From: an uncultured Chlamydiales bacterium
GTDB lineage: Bacteria; Chlamydiota; Chlamydiia; Chlamydiales; JAAKFR01
Assembly (NCBI GenBank): GCA_963699155.1
Contig: OY969414.1
Location: 32,001 to 96,000, forward strand
DNA length: 64,000 bases
Direction of reading: 5' to 3'
In this document: piece after piece, positions 1 to 61,123 of the stretch
Numbering within the stretch: the first letter of the stretch is position 1
Layout of the letters: each line of letters opens with the position of its first letter
Notes under the pieces: generated by a model
Databases searched by the model: none
Told to the model about the DNA's origin: nothing
What the model saw: only the letters and a program-made list of their open reading frames with translations
Position numbers and translations under genes: made by a program

Positions 1-440
1 AAGTCCATTTGCCATAATTCATTTGGATAATCTCTTTGAAATCGTATACAGCCCTGTCTTTTAGATGTTTCCATAGCTGAAATTTGGTTCTGACGATGCA
101 ATATGCGATTGAAGGAAGCAATGCTTGGTAAAACTTGATGGCCTTCATTGATCAATACCTGTCGTAATTTTTTTGCTCCCCAGCAAGGATATTGAGCTCT
201 TTTAGACAAAATGAGCTCCACATTCTCTGTATCTAATCTAGAAGGCATATGAGTAGGCCGTTTAGACCGATTGTTAAGGCCCAACTTCCCCTCTTCTGCA
301 TATCTCTGGAGCCATTTATAGGCAGTTTTTCGACTGATACTGTATTTTCGAGCTAGATTACTAATCGTATCTATTTTTTCTTTGGCCGCGCTTATAAATT
401 CTTCTCTTAAAGACATAAGTCCTCTGTTATCCCATGGCAT
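1..440 (-). CDS. IS481-family transposase, N-terminal part (truncated by window edge)
   Basis: Mirror of 1179-1618; ATG at 440-438. Confidence 0.9.
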   Translation of the reverse strand, partial: MPWDNRGLMSLREEFISAAKEKIDTISNLARKYSISRKTAYKWLQRYAEEGKLGLNNRSKRPTHMPSRLDTENVELILSKRAQYPCWGAKKLRQVLINEGHQVLPSIASFNRILHRQNQISAMETSKRQGCIRFQRDYPNELWQMD

Positions 441-516
441 AGTTACCTCATCAAAAAATTAATGAGTGTAACCTATGTCCTGATACAAAGTGTTACCTAT
501 GTCTTGATACTATACA
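1..516 (-). mobile_element. IS481-family insertion sequence, copy 1 (left end and 5' part; runs off window start)
   Basis: 1-516 is the reverse complement of 1103-1618 (position x pairs with 1619-x); left terminal TGT at 516-514 on the minus strand. Confidence 0.95.
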
Positions 517-1102
517 CGCCAACGGCGCGAGGGGCCCTCCCCTATTATTTCTGCGAGTCGACACGAAAGGGGCCCCGCTAAGAGACGAAGTCCGGCGGGG
601 TATTCGTGCATGAGCAGCCCACGGCCGCAGATTGCAAAGCCAGATCGCTTCCGGAGCTGAGCGAAGCGCCCCGTCCGCAGGCAGGAGTGGCGAGGCGTTA
701 CTCACGCAAGATATAACCTGAGATAGTTTCATTTCCTCAGGGTTTAACCAGCACCTGAAAGTGCGGGGCCGCGCGGAGCGCGGGGTCTAGTGCTTTGCAC
801 AGACCCCCAGCGAGGAAGCGATATGGCAAAGCAAGATGCGGCTCAACGGGGACAAGGTACCTCAAAAAGCCTCCAGTGGAGGGTTTTTGATGGGTTGTCC
901 GAGAGTTCACAAGTTTACTTGTGAACCGAGGGGAAGCAGGGGGTTGCTGACACGAAGTGACGCAACCGCCCGACACATCTATAAGCTGCCATTTAAGATC
1001 AATTGCTATGTCTTGGATAAATAATCGGTCAGGCAGGCAAACCCTCTCCAAACATGGGTGGGAGAGGGGTTAAAGGGGAGGGGGGGGGGAGCGCCAAGGG
1101 CG
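517..1102. other. GC-rich, hairpin-dense non-coding region between the two IS copies (candidate structured RNA or element end)
   Basis: Many nested stems (cacgaa/ttcgtg, ccccgc/gcgggg, aacctgag/ctcagggtt, ccgcgc/gcgcgg, gggtct/agaccc, gttcacaag/cttgtgaac, accctctcc/ggagaggg); overlapping ORFs look non-coding. Confidence 0.55.
851..933 (-). repeat. ~80-nt structured repeat, copy A (copy B at 38091-38165)
   Basis: Shares cccctcg, tctcggacaa, ccatcaaaaa, ccactgg and tttgaggtaccttgtc blocks with 38091-38165. Confidence 0.85.
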
Positions 1103-2345
1103 TGTATAGTATCAAGACATAGGTAACACTTTGTATCAGGACATAGGTTACACTCATTAATTTTTTGATGAGGTAACTATGCCATGGGATAACAGAGGAC
1201 TTATGTCTTTAAGAGAAGAATTTATAAGCGCGGCCAAAGAAAAAATAGATACGATTAGTAATCTAGCTCGAAAATACAGTATCAGTCGAAAAACTGCCTA
1301 TAAATGGCTCCAGAGATATGCAGAAGAGGGGAAGTTGGGCCTTAACAATCGGTCTAAACGGCCTACTCATATGCCTTCTAGATTAGATACAGAGAATGTG
1401 GAGCTCATTTTGTCTAAAAGAGCTCAATATCCTTGCTGGGGAGCAAAAAAATTACGACAGGTATTGATCAATGAAGGCCATCAAGTTTTACCAAGCATTG
1501 CTTCCTTCAATCGCATATTGCATCGTCAGAACCAAATTTCAGCTATGGAAACATCTAAAAGACAGGGCTGTATACGATTTCAAAGAGATTATCCAAATGA
1601 ATTATGGCAAATGGACTTTAAAGGGTTTTTTGCTGTGATTGAAGGCCGATGCTACCCACTCACCGTTTTAGATGATTGTTCACGATTTTCAATATGCATT
1701 AAAGCCTGCGGCGCAGAGGATACCATTTCGGTTCGTACAGCATTGGAAGAGGCATTTCGTGAATATGGGCTTCCAGATGCAATGACTATGGATAATGGCT
1801 CTCCTTGGAAAGGCTACCCTACCCAAAGGTTATCCAAGCTGACGATTTGGTTGATGAGACTTGGCATTAAAGTTGGACACTCTAGACCACATCATCCTCA
1901 AACCCAAGGGAAGGATGAAAGGTTTCATCGGACTTTGAAAGCAGAAGTCTTAAAATATCATAATTTTAAAGATTTGGCAGATGCTCAAAGGGGTTTAAAT
2001 GAGTGGAGGAATGTATACAATTACATTCGGCCACATGAAGCCATAGATATGCTTTGTCCTGCACAAAGGTATAAACGCAGTGAAAGAGAATTTCCTGAAA
2101 AGCTCCCCTCGATAGAGTATGAAATGGAAGATGAAGTAAGACAGGTTAGACGAGGAGGAGAAATAAAATTTAAAGGACGACAGTATTATGTAGGAGAGTA
2201 TCTACATGGAGAGCCTGTAGCATTACGCCAAAAGGGAGAACGTAGATGGGACATTTACTATGTCAAGACTAGGATTGGTAGTTTTGATGAAAAAGTGTAA
2301 CCTATGTCTTGATACAAAGTGTTACCTATGTCTTGAGACTTTACA
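1103..2345 (+). mobile_element. IS481-family insertion sequence, complete copy 2 (1243 bp)
   Basis: TGT...ACA termini; ~50-bp imperfect terminal inverted repeats each holding two 24-bp-period subrepeats (gtatcaRgacataggtWacact); 7-bp direct repeat AAGGGCG at 1096-1102 and 2346-2352. Confidence 0.95.
1179..2300 (+). CDS. IS481-family DDE transposase
   Basis: N-terminal HTH (ISRKTAYKWLQRY); integrase-core motifs WQMDFKG, TMDNGSPW, PQTQGKDERFHRTLK, YNYIRPHEA. Confidence 0.95.
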   Translation: MPWDNRGLMSLREEFISAAKEKIDTISNLARKYSISRKTAYKWLQRYAEEGKLGLNNRSKRPTHMPSRLDTENVELILSKRAQYPCWGAKKLRQVLINEGHQVLPSIASFNRILHRQNQISAMETSKRQGCIRFQRDYPNELWQMDFKGFFAVIEGRCYPLTVLDDCSRFSICIKACGAEDTISVRTALEEAFREYGLPDAMTMDNGSPWKGYPTQRLSKLTIWLMRLGIKVGHSRPHHPQTQGKDERFHRTLKAEVLKYHNFKDLADAQRGLNEWRNVYNYIRPHEAIDMLCPAQRYKRSEREFPEKLPSIEYEMEDEVRQVRRGGEIKFKGRQYYVGEYLHGEPVALRQKGERRWDIYYVKTRIGSFDEKV

Positions 2346-2372
2346 AAGGGCGCGAGGGGCCCTCCCCTTAAT

Positions 2373-3185
2373 CTATATTATACTATCGACATCGGTGAGT
2401 TGCCAGGTGCGGTAGAGGCCGAGGGTGACGGTGGCAAAGCTGAGTGGGAGGCGGAGCCAGGGCGGCACTGTTGTTTGGAGCATCTTTGCGCTATCGGAGA
2501 TGATGTGAAGGCCATTTTCGATGATGCCTGTTGTTAAATAGGCCATCCTTTTTGAATAGATCTCGCAATCTTCGGCCTGTGAGGCTCTCTTGAAGGCTTT
2601 CTGCTCATAGGCCAACTCACAGCCTAAAGCGACAAACCCAGCGCAATGCTTGGCCAAAGTGAGGGTTTGATAGCTGCTGGCAATGGAATCTAATGGCTCT
2701 GATAAAGAGACGCTCGAGTAGGTCTGGAGATAGAGGAGGGGCTGGCAGACTGTCGTGGTGAAAAGGCTGAATCCTGTCTTGGCCGTTCGAGCCGACAAGA
2801 AACCTAGACATAAAATTTTTTCTGTATTGCCATGGGCCACTGAATTGTAGCTTGGGGCACTGTGAAGCTGTACATCTTGACCGGTTTTAAAGCTGAGAAG
2901 AAGTTGACCTTGAAGTTTCAGAGCATAGAATAAACGAGGAAGAAGGTGAAAGATGATGTAGCTCACTGACTGGAGATGCTGCATCACGCGCAGGACCACA
3001 CGCCCAGCTGCTAACCCTCTCACAACCTCTTCTCGAGTCTGAGCAGCCTGTGCAATTTCGCTCGCAGCATCGAAGAGACAATCGGCCGCTTTAATCAATC
3101 GATAACCGGTCTGAGGATGGCTAAAGAAGCGATAAGCATGGCTTGATAATGCAGATTCAAAAGAAGAGCGAGCGACGATGCTCAT
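2373..3185 (-). CDS. Hypothetical protein with hydrophobic segments, translationally coupled to fmt
   Basis: ATG at 3185 overlaps the fmt stop (ATGA); ~270-aa open frame; no recognisable family. Confidence 0.7.
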   Translation of the reverse strand: MSIVARSSFESALSSHAYRFFSHPQTGYRLIKAADCLFDAASEIAQAAQTREEVVRGLAAGRVVLRVMQHLQSVSYIIFHLLPRLFYALKLQGQLLLSFKTGQDVQLHSAPSYNSVAHGNTEKILCLGFLSARTAKTGFSLFTTTVCQPLLYLQTYSSVSLSEPLDSIASSYQTLTLAKHCAGFVALGCELAYEQKAFKRASQAEDCEIYSKRMAYLTTGIIENGLHIISDSAKMLQTTVPPWLRLPLSFATVTLGLYRTWQLTDVDSII

Positions 3186-30953: not shown

Positions 30954-31553
30954 ATGTTAAAACTTTATTCACTGTTAATGCGATTAGCAGAAGATCAAGA
31001 ATACAAAAAGCGATTTAAAACCGACCCCCAAAAATATCTTAAGGAGGTATGTGGAATCGTCTATTCTGAAAAGGTTAAGATAATAATCTTCGAGAATTCG
31101 GAAGAAAAAATTTATCTCGTGCTCCCTTTATTAGAAAAAGCTATGGAACGCTATCAAGAAGCTAAAGAGAGCGATCCCGAACACTCACTCTATTACCAAA
31201 AAATTAGTGATCCGGCGATTAGGGAGCGCCTCATCCAAGCTCCAAAAGAAACCCTAGAGAACGAGTTCCATATTACATTTCCTGAGAAGTGTCAAGTCGA
31301 GTTGCTAGAAGAGAGGGAGGGAGAGAAATACCTCGTTATACCTGCCCTAAGTCAGATAGGCGAAATGTCAGATCAACAGTTGGCTGAAATCTCTGGAGGG
31401 GCGGGGCTTTATGCCTCATCCCAACTCATGACTTTATTCACAAATATCTTTAGCTTAGAAGAAAAAGCTCCAGCCAAACAAGTTTATGTGGTCGGTCCCC
31501 CTAACCTCAATACACTGGGCATCACAATACGCACCCCACCCCGCGTGCATTAG
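30954..31553 (+). CDS. NHLP-leader RiPP precursor-like protein with duplicated leader domain and double-Gly site
   Basis: Two NHLP-like units ending YLVLP (aa 54-58) and YLVIP (aa 126-130), then EMSDQQLAEISGG (aa 137-149) and a 50-aa tail; strong RBS aggaggagg. Confidence 0.8.
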   Translation: MLKLYSLLMRLAEDQEYKKRFKTDPQKYLKEVCGIVYSEKVKIIIFENSEEKIYLVLPLLEKAMERYQEAKESDPEHSLYYQKISDPAIRERLIQAPKETLENEFHITFPEKCQVELLEEREGEKYLVIPALSQIGEMSDQQLAEISGGAGLYASSQLMTLFTNIFSLEEKAPAKQVYVVGPPNLNTLGITIRTPPRVH

Positions 31554-31593
31554 ACATCATATTCACGGGCATGAGAATTAAGCCTTGCGCACC

Positions 31594-32967
31594 CTAACCA
31601 GCAGTAGGCTCGGGTTCGCTGGGAGCTTTGCCTGCGGTTGCGGCAGTTTGAGCACGGGCATTCCACATGGGGAGAAAGAGAAGGACTGTGACAACGCAAC
31701 ATGCAGAGAGGATCGCGAAATAACCACCCCAGCCAAAGTCTTGGGCGACTTTGCCGAGCGGATAGCCCGCTGCAGCAGCTCCAAAGTAGGCAAACCAGCC
31801 TGCGAAACCGCTGGCGGTACCGGCTGCTTTTTTATGAGAGAGCTCAGCAGCAGCAAGGCCAATCATCATTTGAGGACCGAAGAGGAAGAAGCCGATGGTG
31901 AAGAGGGCTACAGAATCGATCCAGACACCGATCTCAGGGAAGAGCCATAAACAGAGCACCGAGAGAAGCATCCCGAGTGAGAAGACCACATTCATCGGCC
32001 CCCGTCTGCCCGCATTGATCTTATCGGAAAGCCAACCGGCCACCAACATACCAAAGAGGCCTCCAATCTCAAAGAGGGAGACGCACGCATTGGCTTGGAT
32101 CATCGAATAATCTTTTGTCTCGATCAGATAGAGCGCGCTCCAGTCATTGATCGCCATCCGAACGATATAGACAAAGAAGGAGGCGATTGCCAACATCCAG
32201 ACCCATTTATTATTGAGGACATACTTGAAGAGAATCTCTTTAGTCTTCAGCTCTTTCTCTCGTTGATCGGCCTTCTTTTTGTCGGGGAAGTCGTTACGGT
32301 ACTTCTCAATAGTCGGCAACCCTAAAGATTGGGGGGTATCGCGCAACCGGTTCATCAGGATGAATCCCATAATGATACAGAGAACCCCTGGAATAAACAT
32401 GGCGTAACGCCAACCTAAATATTCTGCACAAGCCCCAGCAAGGATAGGAATTAAAAAGCCACCGACATTATGGGAGGTGCTCCAGACGCTCCACCAGGTT
32501 CCCCTCTCTGATTGGGAGTACCAGTGGGTCAGAAGGCGCGCACAAGGAGGCCAACCCCATCCCTGGAACCAGCCATTTAAGCCCCAAAAGAGCGCAAAGA
32601 GGAGGAGGGAGGAGGCAAAACCGAAGAGAATGGTGCTGATACCTGTAATAATCAATCCAAAGGCCATGAAGAAGCGAGGGTTGGATTGGTCTGATATCAC
32701 CCCACTCGCAAACTTGCTGAGACCATAAGTAATATAAAGGATGCTACCCAAGATGCCGAGTTCGGCTTTGTCATACCCCAAATCGCTCATCAAGGCGGGC
32801 ATGGCGAAGGTAAAGCTTTTCCGTGTGAAGTAGTAAAAAACGTAGCCGATGAACATCGAATAAAAAATCCGCATGCGCCAATATCGGTATTCCTTCTTGA
32901 CAATCTGCGGATCTTCAATCTCTTTAAGATGTTCAGCTGGCTTTAAAAAATTTAACACACCATTCAC
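31594..32967 (-). CDS. uhpC: Hexose-phosphate transporter (MFS, OPA family)
   Basis: YYFTRKSF, GWFQGWGWPPC, ERGTWW, SHNVGG, RDTPQSLGLP, FGPQMMIGLAAAE. Confidence 0.95.
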   Translation of the reverse strand: MNGVLNFLKPAEHLKEIEDPQIVKKEYRYWRMRIFYSMFIGYVFYYFTRKSFTFAMPALMSDLGYDKAELGILGSILYITYGLSKFASGVISDQSNPRFFMAFGLIITGISTILFGFASSLLLFALFWGLNGWFQGWGWPPCARLLTHWYSQSERGTWWSVWSTSHNVGGFLIPILAGACAEYLGWRYAMFIPGVLCIIMGFILMNRLRDTPQSLGLPTIEKYRNDFPDKKKADQREKELKTKEILFKYVLNNKWVWMLAIASFFVYIVRMAINDWSALYLIETKDYSMIQANACVSLFEIGGLFGMLVAGWLSDKINAGRRGPMNVVFSLGMLLSVLCLWLFPEIGVWIDSVALFTIGFFLFGPQMMIGLAAAELSHKKAAGTASGFAGWFAYFGAAAAGYPLGKVAQDFGWGGYFAILSACCVVTVLLFLPMWNARAQTAATAGKAPSEPEPTAG

Positions 32968-33142
32968 AGCACTCTCCTATCTAAAGAGATTTATTAACGC
33001 TCATGATTTTCCCGTAACGATAAATATAGCATGAAAAAGGCGAAAAAGTCACCACTCTTTTCTCCCTCGGCTGGTCGATGAGGTTATGGAAGAGGTCTAT
33101 TGCTTCTTGACCTTCTGTTTAAGATATGCTAACAAAAGAGAG

Positions 33143-33595
33143 ATGAGCAATAATATATCGGAAGATGAGGTCGACGCACTGCTAAAGGGCAACGCTTCTG
33201 AGCCTCAATCCACCAAAGAAGAATCTCTTGAAAAACTGCTTGAAGAGATCATGAGCACCGCTCCCTCAGCCCCTGCTGCTTCGGCGCTCTCCCCAGAAAG
33301 AGCGCCCCTCTTTGCTACCCAAACCGAAAAGCAAAAAAAGAATCGCTACCTACCCCTCTGGCTCAGCAGCGCCGTTTTAGGCGCTTTTCTCCTCGGCGGC
33401 GCATTTGGCTTTTATTGGGGAAAGAATGATCCTTCTGCCCCCACCTTGAAAGCCCTCCAAGAAGGAATCACCCAACTCACCGACCAGGTCAACCGCTTAG
33501 TGAAAGCGATGGAACCTCCCTCCACCGCCTCCTCAGAGATCATCGAGCCCCTCCCTTCCCCCATCAAAAAGAAAGCCAAAGAAGCCATTCTTTAA
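33143..33595 (+). CDS. Hypothetical single-pass membrane protein with coiled coil
   Basis: Acidic N-terminus, one TM helix (LWLSSAVLGAFLLGGAFGFYWG), heptad-like LQEGITQLTDQVNRLV. Confidence 0.7.
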   Translation: MSNNISEDEVDALLKGNASEPQSTKEESLEKLLEEIMSTAPSAPAASALSPERAPLFATQTEKQKKNRYLPLWLSSAVLGAFLLGGAFGFYWGKNDPSAPTLKALQEGITQLTDQVNRLVKAMEPPSTASSEIIEPLPSPIKKKAKEAIL

Positions 33596-33776
33596 CATAG
33601 CTCCCCATCTGCTGCTGCAGGCGATCCTCTTATCCTGTAAAAAAAATAGGAATTATTATGGCACTAGAACCAAAGGCGGCTTTTATCGCCTTCACACTGC
33701 TCTGGCTTCTCAAAATGTAGTGAAGATTTAATCCCCATCGTCTATTCTGATTTGCCATATTTTATTTGTATAGGTT

Positions 33777-35072
33777 ATGCAGTACCGCACCGCGAAAGGG
33801 GTCTTTGACATCCTGCCTTCCGATCCTGATCCTGAAGGACGGTGGCGGGAGTCCCATCTCTGGAACTATCTTGAAGGGGTCATACGCCACCTCGCCCTCC
33901 AGTTTGGTTATCGAGAGATAAGAACCCCTCTCTTTGAAACGACCGATCTCTTTACGCGCAGTATTGGGACAGGCACCGATATCGTCACCAAAGAGATGTA
34001 CACCTTCCAGGACAAAGCCGAGCGTTCTCTTACTTTACGGCCGGAGGGGACTGCGCCGGTGATGCGCGCCTTTATCGAAAAGCAGCTCCACAACCAAGCT
34101 CCGATCCACAAATTTTTCTATATCTGCCCCATGTTCCGCTATGAGCGGAGCCAAGCGGGCCGCTATCGCCAGCACCATCAATTTGGTGTGGAGGCGATCG
34201 GCAGTGCGCTGCCGCAACAGGATGCCGAGTGCATCCATCTTCTCTGGTCACTCTATCACCGGCTTGGGCTGAATGGATTGACGCTTCACCTGAACTCGAT
34301 CGGCGATAAAGAGGCGAGAGCTGAGTTTCGCCATGCTTTAAAGATCTATTTGCGTCCCCACTTAGAGGTTCTCTCTCCTGATAGTCAAGAGCGGTATGAG
34401 ACCAACCCTCTACGCATTCTCGATTCCAAAGATCCGCAGGACCAGAAATGGCTCAAAGAGGCGCCTCATATTCTCGATTTTCTCAATACTGACTCGAAAG
34501 CCCACTTTGAGGCGCTGCGTCAGCTGCTCACAGCTATCGGTATCCCCTACCAGATCAACCACCGGCTGGTGCGTGGGCTCGACTATTACAACAACACCGT
34601 TTTCGAGATCACTGCAAACGAATTGGGCTCTCAAAATAGTTTAGGAGGCGGAGGTCGCTACGATGGCTTGATCCCGCAGCTCGGCGGTCCCGACCTGCCC
34701 GCATTTGGGTTTGGAGCCGGTTTAGAGAGAATCATTCAAACAGCTTTAGCGCAACAGGTCTTTATCCCCAGTTCCCCAGTCTCCGATCTGCTGCTCATTC
34801 CATTGGGCGATCAGGCAGCCACCGAATGTTTCAAACTGCTCTGTGCGATGCGCGACCGTCGGTTGAAGGTCGAGATGGATCTCACAGGTAAAAAACTTAA
34901 GGCAGCGATGCGCTATGCAGACGCCGCTAAAATCCGCTATGTCGCCGTCGTCGGCGATCAAGAGCTCGAGAGTGGTCAGATCGAGCTCAAAGAGATGGCG
35001 ACAGCCACTTCCCAAACCCTTTCTATCGATAGGTTAGTCGATGCGTTACAAGAGAAGTCATTATTGCAATGA
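33777..35072 (+). CDS. hisS: Histidine--tRNA ligase
   Basis: EIRTPLFE, LRPEGTA, MFRYER.QAGRYRQHHQ, LVRGLDYY, GGGRYD. Confidence 0.98.
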   Translation: MQYRTAKGVFDILPSDPDPEGRWRESHLWNYLEGVIRHLALQFGYREIRTPLFETTDLFTRSIGTGTDIVTKEMYTFQDKAERSLTLRPEGTAPVMRAFIEKQLHNQAPIHKFFYICPMFRYERSQAGRYRQHHQFGVEAIGSALPQQDAECIHLLWSLYHRLGLNGLTLHLNSIGDKEARAEFRHALKIYLRPHLEVLSPDSQERYETNPLRILDSKDPQDQKWLKEAPHILDFLNTDSKAHFEALRQLLTAIGIPYQINHRLVRGLDYYNNTVFEITANELGSQNSLGGGGRYDGLIPQLGGPDLPAFGFGAGLERIIQTALAQQVFIPSSPVSDLLLIPLGDQAATECFKLLCAMRDRRLKVEMDLTGKKLKAAMRYADAAKIRYVAVVGDQELESGQIELKEMATATSQTLSIDRLVDALQEKSLLQ

Positions 35073-38008: not shown

Positions 38009-38172
38009 AACGCAAAGACGCCAAGACACAAAGAAGGGGGGTACGCGAAGCGCTCCTATTTCTTTGCGACTCTGAGTCTTTGCGCCTTTACCCCTCGCTG
38101 ACTTCGTCAGTCTCGGACAATCCATCAAAAAAGCGCCACTGGCGCTTTATTTGAGGTACCTTGTCGTTGAAT
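38009..38172. repeat. REP-like palindromic element built of 8-mers, interrupted by the ~80-nt structured repeat
   Basis: aacgcaaagacgccaagacacaaagaagg..gggtacgcgaagcgctc..tttctttgcg is nearly identical to 51902-51970. Confidence 0.85.
38091..38165 (+). repeat. ~80-nt structured repeat, copy B
   Basis: Homologous to the reverse complement of 851-933, with swapped or compensated stems. Confidence 0.85.
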
Positions 38173-60852: not shown

Positions 60853-61018
60853 GACTCTCAGTGGCTCGGCAATTGGCGCCGTTGGGAGTGGCAGCGGCCC
60901 ATTGAGGGCCACGAACGACCTTCGGCGCCCCCACCCGCGCCTGTGACCGAGGCGCAGCCGAGTGTCGCAGCGACGGGCCGGCGCCGTAGGCGCGCGCGAG
61001 TAAACCGATTTACTCGCT
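60853..61018. other. GC-rich multi-hairpin element next to the tRNA-Ser 3' end
   Basis: Stems ctcggc/gccgag, ggcgccg/cggcgcc, ggccc/gggcc, gcgcct/aggcgc, gcgcc/ggcgc, gcgagtaaa/tttactcgc. Confidence 0.6.
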
Positions 61019-61035: not shown

Positions 61036-61123
61036 CGGAAAGAGAGGGATTTGAACCCTCGATACCCTTTAGGGGTATGCGTCCTTAGCAGGGACGTGCT
61101 TTCGGCCACTCAGCCATCTTTCC
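61036..61123 (-). tRNA. tRNA-Ser (GCT)
   Basis: Minus strand ggaaaga/tctttcc acceptor, anticodon arm cgtcc-ctGCTaa-ggacg, long variable arm, GGTTCAAATCC; CCA not encoded. Confidence 0.95.

Follow-up and report, generated by a model that had tools for sequence, protein, structure and literature searches.

An IS481-family insertion sequence between the arms of a repeated palindrome in a chlamydia-like genome

The element and its insertion junctions

We analyzed a 64,000-nucleotide window of the genome of an uncultured Chlamydiales bacterium (assembly GCA_963699155.1, contig OY969414.1), in which two oppositely oriented copies of an IS481-family insertion sequence (IS) lie close together, each inserted in a copy of one hairpin-bearing repeat. 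The genome is a complete single contig of 2,399,326 bp with 47.5% G+C, and the window corresponds to genome positions 32001-96000. Copy 1 occupies window positions 1-516 on the minus strand and contains the left terminal inverted repeat (458-516, with the two 22-nt direct sub-repeats recovered by the repeat search) and the 5' part of the transposase gene; its remaining 727 bp lie upstream of the window. Copy 2 is complete (1103-2345, plus strand), and copy 1 is 99% complementary to window positions 1091-1618. The two left ends face inward across a 586-bp spacer (517-1102), a GC-rich repeat mosaic that holds no gene and carries target repeats at both edges.

The full element is 1243 bp long, with termini TGTATAG...TTTACA and 59-nt terminal inverted repeats that are 90% complementary. 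In copy 2, these repeats lie at 1103-1161 and 2287-2345 on the plus strand. Each contains two 22-nt direct sub-repeats around a GACATAGGT(A/T)ACAC box, and the boxes of the left repeat of copy 2 are found at 1109-1130 and 1133-1154. A single open reading frame (ORF; 1179-2300, plus strand) encodes a transposase of 373 amino acids (aa) with a DDE (rve) core. Members of the IS481 family carry a DDE transposase related to that of IS3, generate a short duplication by staggered cutting, have inverted repeats beginning TGT...ACA and measure about 1-1.3 kb. The present element agrees with each of these features, the short direct duplication being 7 bp in two of its four genomic copies and absent from the other two. 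Specifically, the transposase scores 261 bits against the curated IS481-family model NF033577 (cut-off, 224) and 130 bits against the IS3 model, under that model's cut-off of 160. Its Pfam domains are rve, rve_3, HTH_32, HTH_29 and LZ_Tnp_IS481, and the layout is that of IS481, i.e., one ORF with an N-terminal helix-turn-helix (HTH), a leucine zipper and the DDE core, without the two-ORF frameshift of IS3. The family assignment made in a first-pass annotation, which had been drawn from the window alone, is thus borne out by both the model scores and the domains, as is its description of two inserted copies in opposite orientations.

The genome contains four full-length copies at about 100% identity, with the reading frame intact and free of stops in all four. 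Copies A (942951-944193, plus strand) and D (2207156-2208398, plus strand) lie outside the window, whereas B (33103-34345, plus strand) is window copy 2 and C (31274-32516, minus strand) is window copy 1. Judging from this near-identity and the intact frames, the element appears to be an active IS with recent activity. The prediction that copy 1 would continue for 727 bp upstream of the window and be preceded there by CGCCAAC, set as a test beforehand, proved exact in the whole genome.

At copy 2, the heptamer AAGGGCG stands on both sides of the element (1096-1102 and 2346-2352). As had been read from the sequence, removal of the IS and one duplicate restores the hairpin GCGCC-AAG-GGCGC (stem of 5 bp, loop of 3 nt), which is embedded in a longer, imperfect palindrome. 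The outer arm of this palindrome (GGGAGAGGGG..AAAGGGGAGGGG..) and the 5' half of the hairpin (GCGCC) lie at 1057-1095, and the final hairpin base with the GAGGGGCCCTCCCCTTAA arm lies at 2353-2371. At copy 1, the duplication reads CGCCAAC on the plus strand (517-523) and GTTGGCG on the IS strand, with its partner at genome 31267-31273. This copy adjoins CGCCAAC-GGCGC plus a GAGGGGCCCTCCCCT arm (517-543, including 12 of the 13 hairpin bases), and the repeat search confirmed that it sits beside a second copy of the same repeat, since 524-543 equals 2349-2368 (one mismatch in 23 nt, in the loop). Because the duplications of B and C differ in the loop, they record two independent insertion events.

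The left-end junction is GCGCC-N3-GGCG|TGTATAG in all four copies, with N3 being GTT in A, AAG in B, GTT in C and AAC in D. In B and C, the duplication consists of the loop and four bases of the 3' stem and is therefore centred 2 nt off the dyad, one border falling at the 5' stem/loop junction and the other one base short of the 3' stem end. When the IS is turned round, the offset changes direction with it: ...GGCG invariably stands next to the left end, and 8 nt separate the right end from the nearer arm. With respect to the repeat, A and C share one orientation and B and D have the opposite one. The proposals of a fixed register and of the use of either strand, originally based on the two window copies, accordingly extend to the genome: A and D lie in the same repeat family, with the same left junction, and the flanks of these further copies are not unrelated. 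Past about 30 nt, the flanks of the four copies differ, which counts against spread by duplication of segments comprising the IS and its flanks.

A separate observation concerns the soil-metagenome run X1, in which one contig joins the right end of the IS (window 2194-2345) to 14 bases that match none of the four assembly flanks. These bases differ at a single position from the 14-nt loop of another hairpin module, whose stem is GGTTGC/GCAACC and of which the genome has 15 copies, including one at window 951-964. This junction may represent a fifth insertion that is polymorphic in the population and again located in a hairpin loop.

The target repeat

The GCGCC-N3-GGCGC hairpin had been proposed as the target, with two unoccupied sites in the window (38133-38145 and 60981-60993). 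All four left junctions do carry the hairpin and both sites exist, but the hairpin by itself is insufficient and the two sites are not equivalent empty targets. The genome contains 29 unoccupied hairpins in 2.4 Mb, compared with 1.4 expected from base composition (an over-representation of about 20-fold), and one match to the backward pattern. Given these 29 sites and the position of all four IS copies at one bond, chance can be set aside. When the 29 hairpins were grouped by reading their flanks, 15 fell into a family with a "cccgcac" neighbour, mostly with a TAC/GTA loop. Another 7 formed a terminator-like family, in which an A-run and a T-run flank the hairpin in a manner resembling bidirectional terminators; 3 stood in single contexts, and 4 stood in the IS-bearing context. 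Hence, 25 of the 29 lie elsewhere, and none of these 25 is occupied by the IS. The hairpin at 38133-38145 (genome 70133) belongs to the A-run/T-run family, and that at 60981-60993 (genome 92981) is one of the single-context hairpins; the latter lies about 40 nt from a tRNA gene (61036-61123).

A single family of two-tier palindromic repeats, with about 30 units, accommodates all four IS copies between its arms. In each unit, a variable centre separates the left arm AGGGGAGGGCCCCTC from the right arm TCGCCCCCCTCCCCTT, after which comes AACCCCTCTCCCACCC; the unit folds into an outer stem AGGGGAGGG/CCCTCCCCT, a 6+6-nt internal loop and the variable centre. Counted across the genome, 28 complete units are unoccupied, and there is also one dimer of left arms joined head to head. 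The 13-nt hairpin forms the centre of 2 units and occurs twice in the dimer; other centres are GCGC-TTT-GCGC (4 units), GCTTCGC (9 units) and several variants of 15-21 nt. Unoccupied units matching the restored target of C are present at genome positions 2084851 and 2085073. The rebuilt empty sites of B and C and one unoccupied unit were all predicted to fold into an outer 9-10-bp stem, the 6+6 internal loop and an inner 5-bp hairpin, with energies of -15.9, -15.9 and -18.2 kcal/mol, respectively, and z-scores against mononucleotide shuffles of -4.8, -1.8 and -3.9.

We compared two simple models of target choice. If the hairpin alone were recognised, the probability that all four copies would fall in this repeat family is (8/33)^4 = 0.0035, or 0.06 if B and C alone are counted as independent. 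If the family alone were recognised, the probability that all four left junctions would carry the hairpin is about (8/34)^4. Since both models are improbable, the data point to a combination, i.e., to the hairpin at the apex of this repeat.

The repeat is REP-like (repetitive extragenic palindromic) in shape, but it is not a classical REP. Classical REPs exceed 100 copies per genome (PMC2817692), compared with about 30 units and 4 occupied ones here. In addition, the complete genome yielded no match to the Y1 transposase of REPs (REP-associated tyrosine transposase, RAYT; PF01797), which was detected in 6 of 14 reference genomes that served as a control. The features expected of REP targeting are nevertheless present: every copy (4/4) lies at a fixed position of one palindromic repeat, with all four left junctions at one bond, unoccupied copies of the repeat exist, and excision of the IS with one duplicate restores the site.

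Altogether, these results make it probable that this is a single-ORF IS481-family IS whose transposase directs insertion to the apex of a repeated palindrome. The family of about 30 two-tier units would serve as the landing pad, GCGCC-N3-GGCGC would be the preferred centre, and two staggered strand transfers 7 bp apart would occur at GCGCC|N3 and GGCG|C. Cuts at these positions would generate the duplication N3-GGCG and leave the left IS end always abutting ...GGCG. Moreover, since the target is palindromic, the same register would be available on both strands, which would give the two orientations seen in the window. The transposase itself would read the stem-loop junction or apex together with the flanking arms. 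Its N-terminal HTH and leucine zipper might act on the duplex palindrome as a dimer; alternatively, the transposase might recognise an extruded stem-loop. The pay-off for the IS would be a safe intergenic landing site that exists in many copies.

Several further features of the repeats were recorded. The head-to-head dimer of left arms (genome 2037307-2037369) contains two 13-nt hairpins with TGT/ACA loops around a short GC palindrome; it forms a perfect long palindrome and is unoccupied. The spacer at 517-1102 has 116 blastn matches in the genome and contains no convincing ORF, and no Rfam family was found in window 1-2400 at the gathering score. Modules related to the spacer form head-to-tail units of about 112 bp at genome 739775-740794, with smaller runs at 756324-756776 and 2375370-2375714.

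Relatives and known systems

Close copies of the element are rare. A DNA search found one further full-length copy, in 1 of 28 other genomes of the family, and at the protein level 4 of 401 sampled genomes of the phylum, G000 being counted among the 4, had matches at E<=1e-60. With so few copies of the exact IS, a logo of its flanks is not feasible. The closest relative, with 87% nucleotide identity and from the same genus, lies between two inverted left arms of the same repeat family, with different adjoining bases and no duplication. The palindrome that flanks it (TTTTGCTC..GAGCAAAA) has no unoccupied copy in 4 genomes of the genus.

The end architecture, namely TGT, a first box 13 nt in, and then a second box, recurs in more distant relatives. 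In Actimicrobium sp. (44% aa identity), all three copies carry a 6-bp duplication equal to the loop of a palindrome with an 11-bp stem. The duplication is GCGAAG twice and CTTCGC once, i.e., both orientations are used, and 35 unoccupied copies of the target palindrome each contain one copy of the loop. The same arrangement is found in a Gammaproteobacteria metagenome-assembled genome (MAG; G030) with five copies at 47% aa identity, a CTGGCC loop and 25 unoccupied copies. The backward-pattern control gave no matches in either genome. In Pseudomonas sp. BN417 and one metagenome contig, a 5-bp duplication lies at the centre of a GGTGCGC...GCGCACC palindrome.

To quantify this habit, 64 related loci were entered, and both ends were found in 44 of them and failed in 20; 36 had at least 25 nt of flank on both sides, and 8 had shorter flanks. 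These 36 loci and the four copies of this genome make up a set of 40. We scored stems of at least 8 bp that the two flanks form no more than 12 nt from the IS ends, tolerating one mismatch, and used as controls about 2000 pairings of a left flank with the shuffled right flank of another locus. A flanking stem was present in 21 of the 40 loci, compared with 2.2% of the controls, and a direct duplication of at least 4 bp was present in 18 of 40. Insertion at palindrome tips is therefore common in the clade, though not universal. An exact-pattern scan of metagenome contigs for the shared IS end gave no matches, and a protein scan of metagenome contigs gave 38 loci.

The target palindromes of the Chlamydiota, Betaproteobacteria and Gammaproteobacteria members are alike in shape alone, which supports recognition of an extruded stem-loop. 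Co-evolving readout of sequence, rather than of structure, is possible.

Individual loci showed further arrangements. [quoted passage not shown] At two other loci of this MAG (L023 and L024), the loop octamer is inverted, not direct, across the two sides, in a near-reciprocal manner, and this pattern fits a chromosomal inversion by recombination between two oppositely inserted copies. In two metagenome contigs (L089 and L102), one flank recurs as a perfect inverted copy (45 and 35 nt) on the other side, reaching the IS ends without any loop bases or duplication. L101 shares the right flank of L102 next to an unrelated left flank. The inverted flanks of L089 and L102 may reflect a pre-existing perfect palindrome, a recombination product or an assembly effect. 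Lastly, isolated matches of ~50 nt to the two-box IS end, without a transposase gene, occur in two related genomes (L049 and L050 in G002, L044 in G009) and may be solo ends or MITE-like derivatives.

Two IS3-family elements, IS1397 and ISKpn1, insert in the loop of the palindromic unit. Like the present IS, they possess a DDE transposase, to which their specificity is attributed, and nearly all of their copies lie in a repeated extragenic palindrome (PMC1525189). They differ in belonging to another family, in having two ORFs joined by a frameshift, and in their target, which is the E. coli or Klebsiella palindromic unit of enterobacterial bacterial interspersed mosaic elements (BIMEs). The IS110-family elements IS621, ISPpu9, ISPpu10 and ISPa11 are likewise site-specific in REPs (6/6, 7/7 and 7/7 copies in Table 2 of PMC1525189), but their recombinase is of the DEDD type, they have no terminal inverted repeats and produce no staggered-cut duplication. 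In addition, their target is chosen by a bridge RNA (PMC11208160), whereas no such RNA is expected or seen in the present IS. Closer to home, IS481 and IS1002 of Bordetella pertussis have a transposase of the same family, encoded by one ORF, and duplicate a short stretch of fixed length at a small palindromic consensus; for IS481 itself, this is a 6-bp duplication at the preferred palindrome NCTAGN (PMC3053399, citing Stibitz 1998). The difference is that these elements use a 6-bp consensus anywhere, as opposed to the apex of a long repeated hairpin.

More broadly, REP targeting is described for the families IS3 (IS1397, ISKpn1, ISPsy8), IS110 (IS621, ISPpu9, ISPpu10, ISPa11), IS4, IS256 and IS5 (PMC1525189), "type 1 association" being the class of REP-targeting IS of Tobes and Pareja 2006. 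The two precedents named in the first-pass annotation, IS1397 and IS621, are among these described cases, but that list was incomplete, since REP targeting by an IS481-family element is already in print. Ngan, Parab, Bertels and Gallie (2024; PMC11708052) described such an element at one fixed REP position in Pseudomonas fluorescens SBW25, and theirs is the one description of REP targeting that we found in the literature on IS481 with palindromic or REP terms. The survey PMC1525189 makes no mention of IS481, nor does PMC3733652, and passages of PMC2680597, PMC2869309 and PMC10433421 name IS481 and palindromes without linking them.

The SBW25 element resembles the present IS in size (about 1.3 kb), in its 49-bp inverted repeats and in having four nearly identical copies (PMC11708052). 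Every copy is at the same position of the repeated palindrome, the upstream side is conserved, and one copy is without duplication (PMC11708052). Pseudomonas relatives of the present transposase (42-47% aa identity) also have its end architecture, and the two elements presumably belong to the same clade. The SBW25 element differs in its gammaproteobacterial host, its RAYT-associated target (classical REPs and REPINs) and its apparent 4-bp duplication (PMC11708052), as against a GC-rich two-tier hairpin in a chlamydia-like genome without RAYT, a 7-bp duplication and both orientations here. What our analysis adds is a host in the Chlamydiota, a non-REP two-tier hairpin target and an off-dyad register coupled to orientation. 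It further adds a comparison across phyla and, after SBW25, a second instance of upstream-conserved copies that lack a duplication.

Competing explanations and implications

Several observations weigh against target choice by the transposase as set out above, among them those on copies A and D. Neither has a duplication, and their right flanks, which start CGCTTTGCGC (A) or GCGAAGCG (D), are near-complete alternative centres of the same repeat family, without the hairpin, followed by the matching arm. The right arm of A is of the subtype paired with the TTT centre. In D, the two arms belong to the "cccccag" subtype, and no unoccupied member of that subtype has the 13-nt hairpin. The arrangement in A and D resembles 12 nt plus the IS placed between an arm and an otherwise intact centre, and the left junction that they share may have been inherited or carried rather than chosen. 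With four copies in all, perhaps just B and C are clean primary events, and the clean support for the register is small, consisting of two complete events plus two half junctions. In the contigs assembled from four public runs, which are pieces of 150-310 nt, there is no bridge over an empty site or over both copies, and there are no joints. The relatives also raise difficulties. The register here is displaced from the dyad by 2 nt, in contrast to Actimicrobium, where duplication and loop coincide exactly; 19 of the 40 loci have no stem of at least 8 bp, and 22 have no duplication of at least 4 bp. Furthermore, loci of one genome are not independent, and after single-linkage grouping a stem is found in only 4 of 9 groups.

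Under the explanation that we favour, namely insertion directed to the apex of the repeat, A and D would be either secondary products or copies that carry upstream flank bases. Whichever origin holds, their right-end junctions lie inside centres of units of this repeat family. Two simpler origins were rejected. Flank exchange among the four present copies is ruled out, as none of the eight present flanks pairs with another. Similarly, the 12 bases cannot be part of the IS itself, since their loop differs between copies and the 87% relative, with its different adjoining bases, lacks them.

For A and D as secondary products, we put the chance at slightly below even. In this case, direct copies in neighbouring repeats would have recombined, or an adjacent deletion would have occurred, leaving the flanks of two different repeats. 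The target repeats do cluster: B and C are just 586 bp apart, and D has further repeat units 240 bp upstream and 1.9 kb downstream. At a spacing of 586 bp, a direct pair would collapse while an inverted pair would be stable, and B and C would thus have survived because they are inverted. The near-reciprocal loci of the Gammaproteobacteria MAG (L023 and L024), with the loop octamer inverted on one side, bear the signature of recombination between IS copies, and recombination and adjacent deletion are frequent causes of missing duplications (PMC11708052). However, with no pairing among the eight flanks, the partners must have been lost. This origin also presupposes that hairpin-free centres were hit at other registers and that D involved a hairpin-bearing unit of a subtype which is not observed in unoccupied form.

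A second origin, to which we give tentative and clearly lower credence, is that the 12 bases GCGCC-N3-GGCG move with the IS, e.g., as a long circle-junction spacer, and that A and D were dropped without duplication, in which case the identity of the left junctions would be partly inherited. This would account for the retention, in A and D, of both arms and a near-complete alternative centre, with 12 nt and the IS added between arm and centre, and for the presence in D of two arms of one subtype that otherwise never has the hairpin. In SBW25, Ngan et al. report that 4 bp are carried by the element and that a de novo copy was also without duplication (PMC11708052). On the other hand, B and C have true duplications with different loops, the AAG loop of B is in no other copy and was thus made on site, and the AAC loop of D has no extant donor. 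In addition, the 87% relative has quite different bases at that place, no circle junction was seen, and 12 bases are far longer than the reported 4 bp. As a third origin, A and D might be explained by capture at a break in the palindrome, which Ngan et al. put forward as a hypothesis (PMC11708052).

Turning from A and D to the target itself, we consider it quite improbable that the 13-nt GCGCC-N3-GGCGC sequence alone is the recognition site, with every copy, including those at 38133 and 60981, an equivalent empty target. The motif and its register are common to all four left junctions, and the motif is strongly over-represented, both in favour of this reading. However, the 25 motifs in other contexts (15 + 7 + 3) are without the IS, the corresponding probability is the 0.0035 given above, and the motif is missing from the centres that hold the right-end junctions of A and D. 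The weakest alternative, that the inverted pair is an assembly fold-back or that the repeat is part of a larger duplicated segment including the IS, draws on the presence of two identical inverted copies 586 bp apart and on the lack of a spanning read or contig among the contigs of the four runs, and we give it almost no credence given that each copy has its own 7-bp duplication with a different loop, that the outer flanks are unrelated and not mirror images, that the two remaining copies stand in different surroundings at distances of 0.9 and 2.2 Mb, and that the orientation of the IS relative to the repeat varies between copies. Altogether, the first-pass interpretation is partly supported: it was right in its core, too narrow on the target and incomplete on prior knowledge.

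A bolder proposal, which we regard as rather doubtful when its two parts are taken jointly, is that the clade reads DNA shape and not sequence, the cue being the junction of stem and loop at the apex of a hairpin that is extruded or exposed by replication, and that the element also carries its upstream hairpin to new sites. The reading of shape, if true, would explain how members of this clade meet unrelated palindromes in hosts of three phyla and yet cut at the loop borders. The carriage of the hairpin without duplication (12 nt here, 4 nt in SBW25), if true, would seed the preferred hairpin in other units, such that the IS would remodel its own landing pads.

An IS that homes to intergenic hairpin repeats would spare its host while concentrating recombination substrates at those repeats. 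The duplication-less copies A and D, together with the SBW25 report, bear on the origin of missing duplications. Finally, a DDE lineage of 1.2 kb and a single protein, found at palindrome tips of differing sequence across phyla, is a simple candidate for testing whether DDE transposases can read structure.

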